Of a stretch of DNA of 32,656 nt, positions 22,482 to 27,518 are shown piece by piece (the stretch's first letter is position 1; every line of letters starts with the position of its first letter). The notes beneath the pieces were generated by a model, which did no database searches, was not told the DNA's origin, and saw nothing but the letters and a program-made list of their open reading frames with translations. Location of the stretch: NCBI GenBank assembly GCA_016193565.1, contig JACPRY010000012.1:1-32656 (forward strand), read 5' to 3'. Source of the DNA: Armatimonadota bacterium (GTDB lineage: Bacteria > Sysuimicrobiota > Sysuimicrobiia > Sysuimicrobiales > Kaftiobacteriaceae). The position numbers were made by a program, and so were the translations under genes.

Positions 22482-23426
22482 CCCAATCCCATCACGATAC
22501 GCGAAGCCTATCTGTACGGTTGTGAGCACCTCATCGCTTCGGGCGTACCGGAGCCGGCCATCGAGGCCGAGGTCCTGCTGAGGCACGTCCTGGGCTATGA
22601 TCGGGCGGCGCTGTATACTCGCTGGGACTCTCCGATTGATCCTCCCACGGCCGGGCGCTACCAGCGCCTTTTGGAGATCCGGAGCACGGGGCGGCCCGTT
22701 CCCTACATCATCGGTACGCGGGAGTTTATGAGCCTCCCGTTCGCAGTGGACGAACGGGTGATGATCCCGAGACCCGAAACAGAGATTCTGGTGGAATATC
22801 TGGTGAAGAAGTTCTCAACTACGGAAACGAGGAAACGAGGAAACGAGGGAACGAGTCAAGGCGACGAACGACCAACGACCAACGACGAACATCAGTTGGT
22901 GCTGGTTGATGTCGGGACGGGCAGCGGCTGCATCGCGGTGAGCCTCGCACACTACCTGCCGCAAGCCCGCGTCTATGCGACCGACATCTCGGCCGCGGCG
23001 CTCGAGATCGCCGCGCGAAACGCTCAGCATCACAACGTGGCAGATCGGGTGGTCCTGCTTGAGGGCGATCTCCTGTCCCCCCTTCCGCACCACCTGGACG
23101 GACAGGTGCAGGCCGTAGCCAGTAACCCGCCCTATGTCCCGGTATCACAGGCGCTGGACCTGGCGAGGGAAATTCGCGATTTCGAGCCTGCGGAAGCCGT
23201 GTTTTCGCCGGGCGAAGGAACGGTGATGCACGGCAGGCTGATCGAAGAAGCGCCTCGCTGGCTCTGCGCCGGAGGGATGCTCGCGATGGAGATCGCTGCG
23301 GGCCAGGCTGAGCCTGTGCGCAATCGAGTGGCTCAGGACAACCGGTATGATCGTGTTTGCTCCCTCTCTGATCTTGCTGGAATTGAGCGCGTGGTGGTCG
23401 CATGGCGACGACACGCGACAGGGTAG
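22482..23426 (+). CDS. prmC: release-factor glutamine N5-methyltransferase (PrmC/HemK); start codon uncertain
   Basis: The frame is open from immediately after the prfA stop and encodes the PrmC N-domain (...IREAYLYGCEHL...VLLRHVLGYDRAALY...), then VLVDVGTGSGCIAV and NPPY. There is no ATG/GTG/TTG before the track's internal TTG at 22671. Contains a 20-codon in-frame repeat insertion. Confidence 0.75.
   Translation, partial: PNPITIREAYLYGCEHLIASGVPEPAIEAEVLLRHVLGYDRAALYTRWDSPIDPPTAGRYQRLLEIRSTGRPVPYIIGTREFMSLPFAVDERVMIPRPETEILVEYLVKKFSTTETRKRGNEGTSQGDERPTTNDEHQLVLVDVGTGSGCIAVSLAHYLPQARVYATDISAAALEIAARNAQHHNVADRVVLLEGDLLSPLPHHLDGQVQAVASNPPYVPVSQALDLAREIRDFEPAEAVFSPGEGTVMHGRLIEEAPRWLCAGGMLAMEIAAGQAEPVRNRVAQDNRYDRVCSLSDLAGIERVVVAWRRHATG
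22823..22890. repeat. compound array inside prmC: (GGAAACGA)x4 + GTCAAGGC + (GACNAAC)x4
   Basis: Encodes TETRKRGNEGTSQGDERPTTNDEH between the PrmC N-domain and the methyltransferase GTG motif. Length keeps the reading frame. Confidence 0.75.
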
Positions 23427-23459: not shown

Positions 23460-24140
23460 ATGTCCTACTACAACCTTACGTTCTCGAACCTGTCTTCACT
23501 CGAACAACGGCAGTTACCGATCGTGAGAGCCTCGGCATCAGACGTCCCGCGCCGCGCAATAGAGACGTTAACGCAGGGAGGTGTGGTCGTCTATCCCACG
23601 GACACGGTGTACGGCGTCGGCTGCCGGATCGACGACGACGCCGCTGTGCGGCGGGTGTTTGCGCTCAAGGGCCGCCCTCACACAGAGGCATTGCCGGTGC
23701 TGCTTGCCGACGTCGCGCAACTCGACCAATATGCTCGTGATGTCCCTCCTGCAGCGCGCCGTCTGGTCAGCCGCTTCTGGCCGGGCGCGCTGACCGTGGT
23801 CGTCCGGCGGTCCGAGCGCGTGCCATCACTTGTTGCGGGCGGCGGCCCGACGGTGGCGCTGCGCGTCCCCAACCATCCCGTGCCCCGCGCGCTGGTGCGG
23901 GCGGTGGGCGTGCCCATCGTGGGGACGAGTGCCAACACGCACGGGATGCCGTCGCCGGTCACGGCGCAGCTCGCGGTATATGATCTCGGTGACCGGGTCG
24001 ATCTTGTCCTCGACGGCGGGCGGGTTCCGGGAGGGCGCGAGTCGACCGTCGTTGACGTGACCTCGCAGTCGCCCAGGGTCGTGCGTCAGGGAGCTATTCT
24101 GGCGAAAGAGATTGAATCACTTTTCGGAGGCGGACGTTGA
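23460..24140 (+). CDS. tsaC: L-threonylcarbamoyladenylate synthase (TsaC/Sua5/YrdC family)
   Basis: YrdC fold motifs (VVVYPTDTVYGVGC, ALKGRP, SANTHG). A GTG start about 60 nt downstream (M-RASASDV...) is possible. Confidence 0.8.
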   Translation: MSYYNLTFSNLSSLEQRQLPIVRASASDVPRRAIETLTQGGVVVYPTDTVYGVGCRIDDDAAVRRVFALKGRPHTEALPVLLADVAQLDQYARDVPPAARRLVSRFWPGALTVVVRRSERVPSLVAGGGPTVALRVPNHPVPRALVRAVGVPIVGTSANTHGMPSPVTAQLAVYDLGDRVDLVLDGGRVPGGRESTVVDVTSQSPRVVRQGAILAKEIESLFGGGR

Positions 24141-24625
24141 AGATCGCCATTGCAAGCGACCACGCCGGGTACCAGCTCAAAGAAGATGTGAAGATGTGGC
24201 TTCGCGAACTGGGACACGAAGCTCGGGACTTTGGCACGCATTCGGAAGATCCGGTCGACTATCCCGACTTCGCCGTGCTGGCGGCGGAAGCGGTGAGTCG
24301 CGGAGAGTGTGACCGCGGTATCGTGCTCGGAGGGTCCGGCAACGGGGAGGCGATCGTCGCCAACAAGATCCCCGGGATCCGCTGCGCGCTGTGCCACGAC
24401 GTCACGACCGCGAGACTGGCCCGAGCTCACAACGACGCCAACATGCTGGCCCTTGGGCAGCGCATCGTCGGCACTGAAGTGGCCAGGGACATCGTGCGCT
24501 CGTGGCTGGAGACCCCCTTCGACAGTGGACGGCACCAGCAGCGGATCGAGAAGATATCGGCGATTGAGGCACGGCTCATTGAGAATGGGCGAAAGGCCGC
24601 GACAGGGGGTAGCGCGCGTGAGTAA
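24137..24625 (+). CDS. rpiB: ribose-5-phosphate isomerase B
   Basis: [16 protein letters not shown]... RpiB/LacAB family. TTG start overlapping the tsaC stop, GGAGG SD. Confidence 0.9.
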
Positions 24626-25253
24626 AGGCAAGGTGTTTGTCTTCGACCACCCGCTGATCCTGCACAAGGTCACGATCCTGCGAGACACGCGCACCGGGCA
24701 CAAAGAGTTCCGCGAACTGGTCGAGGAACTCGCGATGTTGATGGCTTTCGAGGTCACCCGGTCGCATCCGACACGCGAGGTCGAGGTCGAAACGCCGCTG
24801 GCCACGACGAAGGGGCGGAGCATCGCGGGGCAGGAGATCGCCGTCGTCCCGATCCTGCGCGCGGGGCTGGCGATGGAAAGCGGCATCACCCGTCTGATCC
24901 CGACGGCCCGTGTCGGGCACGTCGGCATCTACCGCGATCCAGAGAGCCTCGAACCCGTGACCTACTACTCCAAACTCCCCACCGACATCGCGGAACGCGA
25001 GGTGATGATCGTCGATCCCATGCTTGCAACCGGCGGCTCGATCGTGGCCTGCATCGACACGCTGAAACAGCGAGGCTGCAAGACGATCAAGGTCGTGGCG
25101 ATCATCTCGGCGCCCGAAGGGATCAAGAAGGTGCATGATGCACATCCGGACGTTGAGATCTACACTGCAGCTATCGATAGCCACCTCAACGACCACGGCT
25201 ACATTGTGCCGGGGCTCGGCGACGCGGGCGACAGACTATTTGGGACGAAATAG
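24618..25253 (+). CDS. upp: uracil phosphoribosyltransferase
   Basis: [18 protein letters not shown]..., PRPP-binding [14 protein letters not shown] start overlapping the rpiB 3' end, AGGGGG SD. Confidence 0.9.
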
Positions 25254-25293
25254 CCCAGTCGGGCTATAGACTCAACTGACCAGGACGAGTTCA

Positions 25294-25899
25294 ATGACGA
25301 TGGATGCACAATGGGACGAGATAAGTCTGGACGTCATGCGAGTCCTGGATGGTCAGAGCGGCGTTGGAGAGAGTCCAGAAAGCTACAATGGGCGATGCCG
25401 CTGCATATGGTGCGGCGAATACAAGCAGCAAGAGGAGTTCGTTCGGAGTCCGCGCTATGCGTCCGGATACTCTTCAAGATGCAAAGTGTGCCACGCGTCT
25501 TACATGCGACGCCGGCTGGCAGAGTTGAAGGCAGGTATCTGGAAGCCAACAGGAATGCGACGCGGTGTGCCAAATGCGACGCGCATTCCCACCGAGCCGG
25601 ACATTGCCTGGGTGGCCGGTTTCCTTGAAGGCGAAGGAAATTTCCGGCGCTCATATAGTTCACATGATCGCTACGGCACTGAGCAGGTGTCGGCCGGGCA
25701 GGTGAATCCAGAGCCACCGTACAAGCTTCAGGAGCTTTTTGGAGGTGCAATCTACAAAAAGAAGCGCAGCAAGTGGGGCATGAACGACATCCTCTACTGG
25801 CAGGTCACTGGCGAACGGGCGCGGGTGCTGATGAGGGCAGTAGAACCCCTGATGTCTGCGCGTCGACGCGAACAGATCAAAAAGGCGTCATCCCGATGA
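25294..25899 (+). CDS. LAGLIDADG-family homing-endonuclease-like protein with N-terminal 4-Cys Zn-ribbon
   Basis: Single LAGLIDADG-type motif IAWVAGFLEGEGNF followed by a HEG-like ...LQELFGGAIYKKKRSKW...ILYWQVTG... segment. N-terminus has CRCIWCG...CKVCH. Low GC3. Stop overlaps the next ATG (ATGA). Confidence 0.55.
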   Translation: MTMDAQWDEISLDVMRVLDGQSGVGESPESYNGRCRCIWCGEYKQQEEFVRSPRYASGYSSRCKVCHASYMRRRLAELKAGIWKPTGMRRGVPNATRIPTEPDIAWVAGFLEGEGNFRRSYSSHDRYGTEQVSAGQVNPEPPYKLQELFGGAIYKKKRSKWGMNDILYWQVTGERARVLMRAVEPLMSARRREQIKKASSR

Positions 25900-26357
25900 G
25901 CAAGCCATCCTGGGATGCGTATTTCATGCGGATGGCACACCTTGCCTCAACTCGCTCAACGTGCCTACGCCGCAAAGTCGGAGCGGTGATCGTCAAGGAT
26001 CGCATGGTTCTGACGACAGGGTACAATGACACACCGCGAGGTGTTCGCAACTGTGGAGAGGGCGGATGCGCTCGTTGTGGGGGGGATGCGCCCTCCGGAA
26101 CCAGCCATGACACCTGTCTGTGCATTCACGCTGAGATGAACTGTGTCATTCAAGCAGCCTACCATGGTGTTTCAGTAGCAGGCGGAACAGTGTACTGCAC
26201 GTATCTCCCGTGCTTGACGTGTGCGAAGATTCTTCTGAACGTCGGCATCAAGCGCATTGTTTTCGAAGGCCAGTATCCTGACCTGCTGTCATTGGAACTC
26301 CTCACGAATGCTGACGTGGAACTGGTCCGCTACGCGGAAGAGGGGGTCCCCGGCTAG
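25896..26357 (+). CDS. dCMP (deoxycytidylate) deaminase, ComEB-like
   Basis: CMP/dCMP deaminase zinc-binding motifs HAEMNC...PCLTCAK, 153 aa, low GC3 like the upstream ORF. Confidence 0.85.
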   Translation: MSKPSWDAYFMRMAHLASTRSTCLRRKVGAVIVKDRMVLTTGYNDTPRGVRNCGEGGCARCGGDAPSGTSHDTCLCIHAEMNCVIQAAYHGVSVAGGTVYCTYLPCLTCAKILLNVGIKRIVFEGQYPDLLSLELLTNADVELVRYAEEGVPG

Positions 26358-26364
26358 GCGTCGG

Positions 26365-26532
26365 GAGCCCTTCTGTCTGACCTACGCGAAGATGATTGTC
26401 AACGTGGGCATCCGGCGGATGATCTTCGCCGGCGACTACCCCGACCCGCTGGCGGTCGAGATGCTGTCGGATGCCGGTGTGACGATTGAACGACTCTCGC
26501 TGGAACCACTTGTTCCTGGGGAACCGAGGTAG
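26365..26532 (+). pseudogene. 3' remnant of a native (host-composition) dCMP deaminase gene
   Basis: Encodes REPFCLTYAKMIVNVGIRRMIFAGDYPDPLAVEMLSDAGVTIERL..., homologous to the C-terminus of the intact gene (PCLTCAKILLNVGIKRIVFEGQYPDLLSLELLTNADVELVRY) but with high GC3 and no 5' part. Confidence 0.6.
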
Positions 26533-26540
26533 CATTCGCG

Positions 26541-26572
26541 CGTTCCCCCGTTCCCGCGTTCCTTCGTTCCCG
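26541..26572. repeat. tandem octamer array (CGTTCCCN x4)
   Basis: cgttcccc/cgttcccg/cgttcctt/cgttcccg. Begins 9 nt after the remnant's stop. Confidence 0.75.
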
Positions 26573-26581
26573 CTGTTGTGT

Positions 26582-26587
26582 TATAAT
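26582..26587 (+). promoter_or_regulatory. perfect TATAAT -10 hexamer for rplY
   Basis: 9 nt after the array, 51 nt before the rplY ATG. Confidence 0.5.
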
Positions 26588-26600
26588 CGGCGTCGGTCTT

Positions 26601-26624
26601 GGCCCTGGCGCGTGGGCCTTTTTT
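26601..26624 (+). promoter_or_regulatory. terminator-like hairpin GGCCC-tggcgcgt-GGGCC + TTTTTT in the rplY leader (candidate attenuator)
   Basis: GC stem plus T6, located between the TATAAT and the rplY start codon (14 nt before the ATG). Confidence 0.4.
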
Positions 26625-26638
26625 CGTGGGGGGTTGAG

Positions 26639-27367
26639 ATGGAACGAGTGAGTCTGGAAGCGAAGCGCCGCGATGGCACGGGAACGAGCAAGGTGCGCAA
26701 GCTCCGCCTGCAGGGGCTCGTCCCGGCGGTCGTGTACGGCCGTGGCCGCGAGCCGGTGCCCGTGGCCGTCGACGGGAAGTCGCTGCGCGCATCGCTGCAC
26801 ACGCATGCCGGCCTGAACGTCCTCATCGACCTGTCCATCGCCGACGGCAGTCGCTCGACGGAAACCGTGATGGTCAGGGAAGTGCAGCGCGGGATGTTCA
26901 GGCGCGAGATCATTCACGTGGATTTCCACACGATCGACCTGACGGAGACACTCGAAGCGCACGTGCGGTTGGTCTTCACCGGCCAGGCGAAGGGCGTCGT
27001 CGACGACGGGGGCGTGTTGGAGATCCACCTCCGCGAAGTCGTTGTCGAGTGTCTGCCGGCACAGATTCCCGAGTCGATTGAGATCGACATCTCAGCGCTG
27101 GGCGTGGGGGACTCGCTGCACGCCAGCGATATCAAGATGCCCGCTGAGGTGACGATGGTCACGTCGGCCGAGGAGGCGATCGCCACAGTCGTCATGCCCA
27201 AGGAGATCGAAGAGGTGGCGCCTGCGGCTGCGGCGGTGCCTGAAGCGGCGGCAGAAGCCGCGGCCCCCGAGGCAGCGGCGCCGGCAGAGGGCAAGCCGGC
27301 CGAGAAGGCTGGTGAGCCTGAGAAGCCCGAGAAACCTGAGAGACCCGAGAAGAAGGAGAAGGGGTAG
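26639..27367 (+). CDS. rplY: 50S ribosomal protein L25 / general stress protein Ctc
   Basis: MERVSLEAKRRDGTGTSKVRKLR...VVYG... L25/Ctc fold. Ala/Pro/Glu/Lys-rich C-terminal tail (PEKPEKPERPEKKEKG). Confidence 0.9.
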   Translation: MERVSLEAKRRDGTGTSKVRKLRLQGLVPAVVYGRGREPVPVAVDGKSLRASLHTHAGLNVLIDLSIADGSRSTETVMVREVQRGMFRREIIHVDFHTIDLTETLEAHVRLVFTGQAKGVVDDGGVLEIHLREVVVECLPAQIPESIEIDISALGVGDSLHASDIKMPAEVTMVTSAEEAIATVVMPKEIEEVAPAAAAVPEAAAEAAAPEAAAPAEGKPAEKAGEPEKPEKPERPEKKEKG

Positions 27368-27424
27368 CAGTCGAACCCCAATCGGCAGTCAGCAGCCGGC
27401 AGTCAGTAGTTTCATAGGGAAAGT

Positions 27425-27465
27425 CGCAGAAGGCAGGTGACGGGAAACTGTCGCTGCCTTCTGCG
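27425..27465 (+). terminator. perfect 12-bp stem-loop (CGCAGAAGGCAG / CTGCCTTCTGCG, 17-nt loop) after rplY
   Basis: 58 nt after the rplY stop. No U-tract. Confidence 0.4.
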
Positions 27466-27518
27466 TGTCTGGAGGCTCTTGACTGGCGACTGCAGGCTGC
27501 CGACGGCTGACTGGTGCG

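Follow-up and report, generated by a model that had tools for sequence, protein, structure and literature searches.

We analyzed a window of 32,656 nucleotides (nt), by which we mean the whole stretch of DNA examined (contig JACPRY010000012.1 of an Armatimonadota bacterium, GenBank assembly GCA_016193565.1), and in particular the interval between the genes upp and rplY, where two overlapping open reading frames (ORFs) are followed by the tail of another gene. ORF1 is predicted to encode an endonuclease with a zinc ribbon and a single LAGLIDADG motif, and ORF2 (dcd') encodes an intact deaminase. Our reading, to which we assign a probability of roughly two in three, is that ORF1 is a free-standing LAGLIDADG homing endonuclease gene (HEG) permanently linked to its own dcd' allele, and that the pair makes up a cassette for gene replacement, which occupies the conserved upp-dcd locus in this Armatimonadota lineage. 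The window has lost the 5' two-thirds of its native dcd; the HEG and a full-length foreign dcd' stand in their place, and the native 3' third is kept as a frame-shifted remnant. A replacement of this kind had been proposed from the sequence in an earlier first-pass annotation, which was partly supported: it was right in outline, and we corrected what it said of the age of the cassette and its present mode of spread.

An endonuclease gene coupled to a deaminase gene

The two genes of the cassette overlap by the letters ATGA, as the first-pass annotation had described, the TGA stop of ORF1 lying at 25897-25899 and the ATG start of ORF2 at 25896-25898. Upstream, upp ends at 25253, and downstream the gene for L25/Ctc ribosomal protein (rplY) begins at 26639 and is followed by pth. 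The HEG is a separate ORF between upp and dcd', outside any intron or intein, and an Rfam scan of 24000-27500 returned no intron and no other relevant RNA family.

Both genes differ in base composition from their surroundings. The guanine-plus-cytosine (GC) content over 25.0-26.3 kb was 0.55-0.58 versus 0.62-0.69 around it. At third codon positions (GC3) the value was 0.62 for ORF1 and 0.62 for ORF2, compared with 0.76 for the remnant and 0.74-0.86 for the flanking genes sua5, rpiB, upp, L25, pth and hppA, which bears out the earlier observation that third positions are AT-richer in both ORFs. Within upp itself, GC3 was 0.86 over 24660-25058 and 0.74 over 25059-25253. In most other carriers that we measured, HEG and dcd' had GC3 values of 0.62-0.68, the exceptions being the HEG of L022 (0.52) and the dcd' of Armatimonadetes CSP1-3 (0.73); flanking genes in carriers ranged over 0.74-0.92 and remnants, in the lineages measured, over 0.75-0.93. 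The dcd genes of relatives that lack the HEG were host-like, at 0.82-0.94. Relatives that have both genes at this site thus do exist, with GC3 always low, and the cassette is compositionally foreign in every carrier measured.

ORF1 consists of a variable N-terminus, a CxxC...CxxC zinc ribbon at residues ~34-68 (nt 25393-25497) and a single-motif LAGLIDADG core at residues 101-199 (nt 25594-25890), in which the motif VAGFLEGEG occupies residues 107-115 (nt 25612-25638). The single sequence scored below threshold against Pfam LAGLIDADG_1 (14.9 bits, cut-off 23.1). A profile made from the family alignment, which comprised ORF1 and 33 homologues, matched solved LAGLIDADG enzymes in the PDB at E=2.8e-8 and 1.6e-7. 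Seven residues (W106, G109, L111, E112, E114, G115 and F117) were invariant among the 34 sequences, and the core pattern of the family was W-[VA]-A-G-F-L-E-G-E-G-x-F; judged by the alignment, E114 would take motif position 8, the place of the catalytic acid in the LAGLIDADG motif. An AlphaFold2 (AF2) model of ORF1, with a predicted local distance difference test score (pLDDT) of 83.5, contained an alpha-beta-beta-alpha-beta-beta-alpha core at residues 101-199 (H101-114, E115-122, E125-136, H140-149, E152-156, E166-172 and H173-186; core blocks at pLDDT 87-98) and a beta-rich CxxC...CxxC ribbon at residues 34-68. When the model was compared with the PDB by Foldseek, the best matches were I-MsoI, I-CreI and I-OnuI (probability 1.00, E=1e-4), the top ranks being taken by the homodimeric single-motif enzymes I-MsoI and I-CreI. 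The profile match, the modelled fold, the Foldseek result and the invariant motif together bear out the prediction that ORF1 is a zinc-ribbon LAGLIDADG protein, and support for the fold was found already at the level of profile searches (E=2.8e-8).

The ORF1 family was also found at 57 loci in viral contigs, at 28-47% identity, and in none of the 57 viral contigs with matches did a deaminase gene lie beside the HEG-family gene. The first-pass annotation had raised phage-like homologues of the cassette; the endonuclease family is indeed common in viral contigs, but no phage copy of the two-gene cassette was present among the 57. A scan of genome contigs with the HEG profile returned distant homologues only, CSP1-3 among them. 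Three distant members, L025 (Cupriavidus necator NZ_SROX01000004, 7986-8453), L027 (6719-7177) and L028 (616-888), are free-standing ORFs, and their neighbors resemble phage structural genes in a prophage-like setting, as judged by ORF translations alone. In some distant members the zinc-ribbon module is C-terminal, not N-terminal.

ORF2 matched Pfam dCMP_cyt_deam_1 (PF00383) at 85.1 bits (cut-off 25) and the phage dCMP deaminase family phrog_174 at E=8.8e-49, and its zinc motifs CIHAE (HAE) and LPCLTC (PCLTC) are intact. Against the NCBIfam model for ComEB, TIGR02571, it scored 111 bits, under the equivalog cut-off of 219. The earlier description of an intact ComEB-like dCMP deaminase therefore stands as to intactness and family but not as to ComEB, and because of the missed cut-off we class ORF2 as a dCMP-deaminase-family protein only, not as a ComEB equivalog. 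The nearest relatives of its C-terminus were P0038 and P0053, at 85-88% identity.

The first-pass annotation had also entertained a two-gene anti-phage or toxin module, in which a nucleotide-depleting deaminase is paired with a nuclease. We consider this very improbable. ORF2 does have partial matches to models of anti-phage dCTP deaminases, NF041025 (98.9 bits) and PADLOC dCTPase (E=2e-36), but the first score is far under its cut-off of 400 and the matches are confined to the shared deaminase core, that to PADLOC dCTPase covering only model positions 438-506 of 630. With 153 amino acids (aa), ORF2 has no additional N-terminal domain, while anti-phage dCTP deaminases are ~430-630 aa long. Furthermore, ORF2 orthologues with 82-88% identity sit in a housekeeping position directly after upp in genomes without the nuclease, and ORF2 replaces the resident deaminase instead of adding to the set. 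On the grounds of size, partial sub-threshold matches and housekeeping synteny, the suggestion was not borne out.

The deaminase remnant and its junction

Behind ORF2, in another frame, the stretch 26365-26532 encodes EPFCLTYAKMIVNVGIRRMIFAGDYPD...EPR* and has no 5' part. It matched positions 97-141 of the 151 in TIGR02571 (ComEB) at E=7.6e-5 and the phrog_174 dCMP deaminase at E=1e-4, in both cases through the C-terminal third of the model only, so that its descent from a dCMP deaminase gene, which the first-pass annotation had proposed, is backed by profile matches. Its best BLASTP score was to P0127 (E=1e-23, 75% identity), and it was up to 77% identical to the C-termini of another deaminase subclade than that of ORF2 (P0127, P0106 and P0138). 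These matches support the view that the remnant is the 3' tail of a different, host-type dCMP deaminase. In the NCBI annotation it appears as a 46-aa hypothetical protein, HYY39_01255.

Two deaminase-derived segments lying head to tail could also have come from a local tandem duplication of the resident deaminase, with decay of the downstream copy and an unrelated later insertion of the endonuclease gene. We give this explanation very little credence, since over their shared C-terminus the remnant and ORF2 are only 51% identical in protein, their GC3 differs (0.62 for ORF2 versus 0.76-0.93 for remnants), their nearest relatives differ (P0038 and P0053 for ORF2, P0127, P0106 and P0138 for the remnant), and the tail of the remnant co-varies with the host background, which dcd' does not.

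The left end of the remnant could be placed by comparison with the native allele L034 (...AAT CAA CCC TGC CTG ACG TGC GCG AAA ATG...), in which homology to the remnant opens at CCC-TGC of the PCxxC motif. Homology to native deaminases begins 10-16 nt past the ORF2 stop, behind a filler of sequence GCGTCGGG; the frame-shifted 3' remnant without a 5' part is as the first-pass annotation described it, but the offset of 19 nt that it gave should read 10-16 nt. The filler GCGTCGGG(AG) is common to the window, L006, L007, L011, L029 and L021. The 5' part of the remnant (26368..26440) is 82% identical to that of L006, a value equal to that of the cassette. The 3' part varies with the host background, with identities of 97% to L006 and L007, 76% to L011, 58% to L029 and 72% to L032.

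Behind the shared junction, the state of the remnant differs between lineages. It is full-length in some, its 5' end is scrambled in L032, and ~40-55 nt are left in L020/L021 and in L093, truncation or degradation being independent in L020/L021, L032 and L093. In the window, Tyr has replaced the second Cys of the motif, and 3 nt are inserted that the other alleles lack. The ratio of nonsynonymous to synonymous substitution (dN/dS) between remnants was 0.10-0.31 over 43-52 codons. We considered whether the remnant might still be functional and rejected this: because remnants were damaged independently in the window, in L032 and in L020/L021/L093, we do not take the low dN/dS as a sign of current function and attribute it to the past of these tails in functional host genes.

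Several further observations concern this region. In L020 (3621-3648) and L021 (3612-3639) the dcd' stop has been lost (TAG to TGG), and the reading frame is extended by ~8 residues, across the filler and into the opening codons of the remnant; the remainder has been deleted, and phoD begins ~25 nt further on. In L093, three ~37-nt CRISPR-like repeats (GTCGCACTCAGCCC...GGATTGAAAC) with ~70 nt spacing occupy 2535-2711, between the truncated remnant and the L25 gene. Over 26257-26532 of the window, and at the equivalent positions of L001, L006, L029 and L032, gene callers give a spurious ORF of 68-74 aa across the junction, which opens within the 3' end of dcd', in a frame other than that of the gene (…WNWSA…), and continues into the remnant. 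Right after the remnant stop, at 26533-26600, the window contains GCATTCGCGCGTTCCCCCGTTCCCGCGTTCCTTCGTTCCCGC, which is similar to the 5' start of phoD (ATG...GCGTTCGCGTTCCCGCGTTCCCCTGTTCCCG) that follows the remnant in L011 and L032, and in the related lineages L020 and L032 the order is dcd or remnant, then phoD, then rplY. By this resemblance, the window may bear the scar of a phoD deletion after the remnant. The parts of the locus are collected in Table 1.

Table 1. Parts of the upp-dcd locus in the window, with positions, strand and the basis of each assignment.
Feature	Positions	Strand	Basis
3' end of upp within the diverged, exchanged tract; left homology and co-conversion zone	25109..25253	+	Jump in divergence versus L003/L005
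Spacer from upp to HEG, with Shine-Dalgarno-like AGGA ahead of the ORF1 start	25254..25293	+	Conserved among cassette alleles (alignment)
ORF1, predicted free-standing homing endonuclease gene (HEG), 201 aa	25294..25899	+	Profile versus PDB, AF2 fold, Foldseek, motif
ORF2, intact cassette-borne dCMP deaminase (dcd'), 153 aa	25896..26357	+	PF00383; HAE and PCLTC motifs
Junction filler, from dcd' stop to start of native-deaminase homology	26358..26367		Filler GCGTCGGG(AG) common to several alleles
Remnant, 5' part, from the Pro/Cys codons of PCxxC; travels with the cassette	26368..26440	+	Alignment to native allele L034
Remnant, 3' part, host-derived tail; stop TAG at 26530-26532	26441..26532	+	97% identity to L006 and L007

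Carriers, empty sites and exchange of the cassette

Relatives with a single deaminase and no endonuclease gene at the locus, which the first-pass annotation had predicted, were found (L013, L017 and the P0131 contig). In HEG-less relatives the gene order is rpmE-prfA-prmC-sua5-rpiB-upp-dcd, with dcd starting 12-50 nt past upp. A single dcd of host composition right after upp in these genomes argues that this is the ancestral arrangement. The presence or absence of the HEG is polymorphic among relatives at this fixed upp-dcd locus.

Carriers whose HEG is 74-82% identical to ORF1 have the order upp-HEG-dcd' with the ATGA overlap, the same filler and the same junction. These comprise the P0002 type (L003-L012), L029-L031, L032 and L033, L092 and L093, and L020 and L021. 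The same junction in at least five diverged lineages argues that it arose once: comparison of these alleles indicates that the PCxxC junction had a single origin in an ancestor of the cassette and was not an event of the window genome. The claim of an illegitimate right-hand junction at PCxxC thus holds insofar as the left end of the remnant lies there, but the junction is neither private to this genome nor recent. Likewise, displacement of the native deaminase by the cassette agrees with the replacement architecture and its 3' remnant, but the replacement is older than this genome. More than 20 independent contigs from different samples share the arrangement of the window, and it is therefore not an assembly artefact, a candidate explanation that we excluded on this basis.

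Coupled HEG-dcd' pairs that lack a remnant were found in L022, L094 and L096, in which the HEG is 65-70% identical to that of the window, and in Armatimonadetes CSP1-3 (L024, L099 and L100), in which the HEG is 38% and dcd' 88% identical. A homologue so distant in the same coupled position, with no remnant, argues that the pairing is old, and by this comparison it would predate the junction. In L096 (5932-6509) a frameshift or a sequencing error divides the HEG homologue into two overlapping ORFs of 127 and 139 aa, beside an intact coupled deaminase. This contig also has two extra genes between upp and the HEG-deaminase pair, and a tetR-like gene downstream.

The exchange of the cassette between strains left a mosaic in closely related genomes. 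Compared with the window, L003 and L005 were 97-100% identical over 4.5 kb upstream and had no differences over 24950-25108, and divergence rose to ~16% from 25109, inside upp; for L003 it was 2.7% outside versus 15.8% inside the tract (Fisher p=8e-35). In L004, L006 and L007 the left jump was located at 24810-24890, and a divergence of 15.7% persisted from there across the end of upp, the HEG and dcd' to a point ~70 nt into the remnant, dropping to 2.6% from ~26440. For L006 this corresponded to 3.6% in the left flank (19/530), 15.7% in the tract (241/1538) and 2.6% in the right flank (3/115), with Fisher p=1e-15 and 2e-5. Synonymous divergence between the window and L003-L007 was 0.04-0.09 in sua5/rpiB and 0.53-0.57 in HEG/dcd'. 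L172 and L173 have a P0002-type cassette on the window backbone and become window-like again at ~26385 (L172) and 26398-26453 (L173); downstream of this switch L172 is ~98% identical through L25 and pth. On one backbone there are, in total, at least two distinct left breakpoints (24810-24890 and ~25109) and at least three distinct right ones (~26385, 26398-26453, and 26440-26492 in L006/L007).

The cassette also occurs on another background. L011 differed from L006 at 2 positions in the 1260 nt of the cassette and then, from ~80 nt into the remnant, at 20 positions in 90 (22%, p=7e-23), and downstream of its remnant is phoD in place of rplY. Allele comparison thus shows, in L011, one transfer of the cassette into a different host background. 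Together these data show that the unit of exchange, moved by homologous recombination, starts in the 3' end of upp, includes the HEG, dcd' and the junction, and ends ~20-70 nt into the remnant. The breakpoints fall within upp and within the remnant, which argues that the remnant now acts as the right homology arm.

Two smaller differences were noted outside this tract. Over ~150 nt at 22700-22900, upstream or at the start of a prmC-like ORF, the window is 18-60% identical to L003 and L004, which are otherwise 97-100% identical to it; an indel or the replacement of a short segment may account for this. Differences and indels relative to L172 are clustered at 26607-26634, just ahead of the L25 start codon, on a backbone otherwise ~98% identical.

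Proposed mechanism, rival readings and known systems

We propose the following sequence of events. A donor genome with upp-HEG-dcd' would have been the source of the cassette, and the endonuclease would have made a double-strand break in a HEG-less native dcd, at or upstream of the PCxxC-coding sequence. The broken left end would then have invaded the donor upp, and synthesis would have copied the HEG and dcd'. Without homology past dcd', this end would have been attached to the PCxxC codons of the broken native gene by an illegitimate join. The resulting locus would have two homology arms, upp on the left and the 3' region of the native dcd on the right, through which ordinary double crossovers could later have spread or exchanged the cassette. 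Cleavage presumably spares the linked dcd', and the supply of the enzyme to the host would have been kept throughout. We infer that ORF1 is an active nuclease, where its target lies, that dcd' is immune and in which order the founding events took place; later exchange, too, may have been initiated by breaks that ORF1 made.

A more far-reaching version is possible, and we offer it tentatively. The locus would then be a self-contained gene-replacement homing cassette, whose enzyme cuts the PCxxC-coding core, whose dcd' is an immune "antidote", and in which the start of the remnant is a built-in right arm. It would be able to overwrite dcd in any upp-dcd genome, as a bacterial counterpart of the mobile endonuclease ORFs (mORFs) of fungal mitochondria described below, and would resemble a natural gene drive.

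The dN/dS was 0.11-0.27 for the HEG and 0.04-0.07 for dcd'. Both cassette genes are therefore under purifying selection and both proteins are maintained. Maintenance of the HEG is among the points in favor of another explanation, namely that the ORF1 product has no nuclease activity, or that it was domesticated to serve the deaminase as a DNA-binding or regulatory partner, and that the mosaic tracts reflect ordinary recombination between co-existing strains. We regard this as rather unlikely. A long-lived, translationally coupled pairing, with a 38%-identical homologue placed likewise in CSP1-3, would also be expected of a domesticated partner protein. Moreover, between L020 and L021 divergence was roughly uniform across the locus, with the cassette in step with its flanks, which looks vertical; L092 and L093 were identical across the locus. 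In a search for an empty site on the window backbone, the only sequences that the remnant peptide retrieved from a collection of 5.8 billion proteins were remnant ORFs and two native fragments cut at the N-terminus (72-75% identity). No HEG-less allele was thus found on a near-identical backbone; the recipients may already have been carriers, and the exchanges may have replaced one cassette allele by another through ordinary recombination. When native and HEG-less deaminase genes were scanned for 22-bp pseudo-palindromes, the scores were no better than for shuffled sequence, and dcd' and native alleles, compared by eye over the PCxxC region, had no consistent discriminating nucleotide. Cleavage of any target by ORF1 is presumed from its sequence, and the comparison of flanks, on which any estimate of the background recombination rate would rest, spans ~5 kb only. 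From the age of the pairing to the span of the flanks, with the by-eye comparison and the identity of L092 and L093 simply set beside them, these points weigh against the homing cassette.

An inactive or domesticated HEG is harder to reconcile with other features of the locus. The distribution is patchy, with HEG-less sister genomes; a non-host GC3 persists in every carrier; the divergent tract is centered exactly on the cassette and its ends vary on both sides; and the residues of the catalytic motif are invariant. The frame-shifted HEG beside an intact dcd' in L096 is as expected of a decaying selfish gene, and free-standing members of the family abound in viral contigs. Patchy occurrence, the L096 frameshift, the independent decay of remnants and the viral abundance of the family all favor selfish behavior.

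The closest described phenomenon is that of the fungal-mitochondrial mORFs, which bring in a foreign C-terminus for a host gene and displace the native C*-terminus to a position downstream, as in Allomyces macrogynus atp6, in Glomus atp6, atp9, cox2 and nad3, and in Endoconidiophora cob and atp6 (PMC3630166, PMC6279837). In these systems a LAGLIDADG or GIY-YIG gene travels with a foreign partial host gene, and the displaced resident 3' part persists as an untranslated duplicate that resembles the gene of close relatives, the inserted copy being divergent (PMC3630166). At the upp-dcd locus, too, a foreign gene copy and an endonuclease ORF are followed by a displaced native C-terminal remnant, and the remnant resembles host-type genes while the inserted copy is divergent. 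However, mORFs are mitochondrial, whereas this cassette is in a bacterial chromosome. Their endonuclease lies between the foreign C-terminus and the native remnant, and the HEG here lies upstream of a complete foreign gene. An mORF sits inside a host gene with its foreign C-terminus in frame on the native 5' part; here there is no hybrid and no native 5' part, and a different gene, upp, flanks the left side as a homology arm.

The free-standing HEGs of phages move by intronless homing with co-conversion of flanking markers, and examples include the T4 seg and mob genes beside nucleotide-metabolism genes and F-CphI at cyanophage psbA. The HEG described here is likewise placed between conserved genes, outside any intron or intein, is polymorphic for presence and absence at a fixed site, has co-conversion tracts of variable length in the flanking genes (initiated, as we suppose, by the HEG) and has a neighbor in nucleotide metabolism. 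Unlike these phage genes, it is in a cellular chromosome, it belongs to the LAGLIDADG type with an N-terminal zinc ribbon and not to the GIY-YIG or HNH types, and it is accompanied by an obligatory, translationally coupled passenger gene and the remnant of a displaced resident. With I-CreI, I-MsoI and I-CeuI, ORF1 shares one LAGLIDADG motif per chain, an acidic residue at motif position 8 (E114) and, according to the model, the same core fold. These enzymes are intron-encoded in organellar rRNA genes, whereas ORF1 is free-standing, with a shorter core (~100 aa) and a four-Cys zinc ribbon ahead of it. Our literature search found no paper that ties a free-standing HEG to a dCMP deaminase in this manner, the full-text matches being phage genome papers that merely mention both terms.

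Free-standing homing endonucleases are, to our knowledge, well documented in phages and organelles and rare on bacterial chromosomes. The underlying principle is already known; what the locus adds is a case on a bacterial chromosome, where such cases are rare, and a natural series of unusual completeness. There is also a point for annotation, in that the remnant is labelled a hypothetical protein and spurious ORFs are called across the junction. If the enzyme cuts the PCxxC-coding core, it would provide a new compact meganuclease scaffold, a ~100-aa core with a zinc ribbon, directed at a defined and conserved target. The series comprises empty sites, HEG and gene without a remnant, the same with a remnant, decaying remnants, a frame-shifted HEG, and near-isogenic strains with different cassette alleles, and it permits the life cycle of the element to be reconstructed. 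For this Armatimonadota lineage, the upp-dcd locus shows a housekeeping gene that was horizontally replaced without ever being lost.

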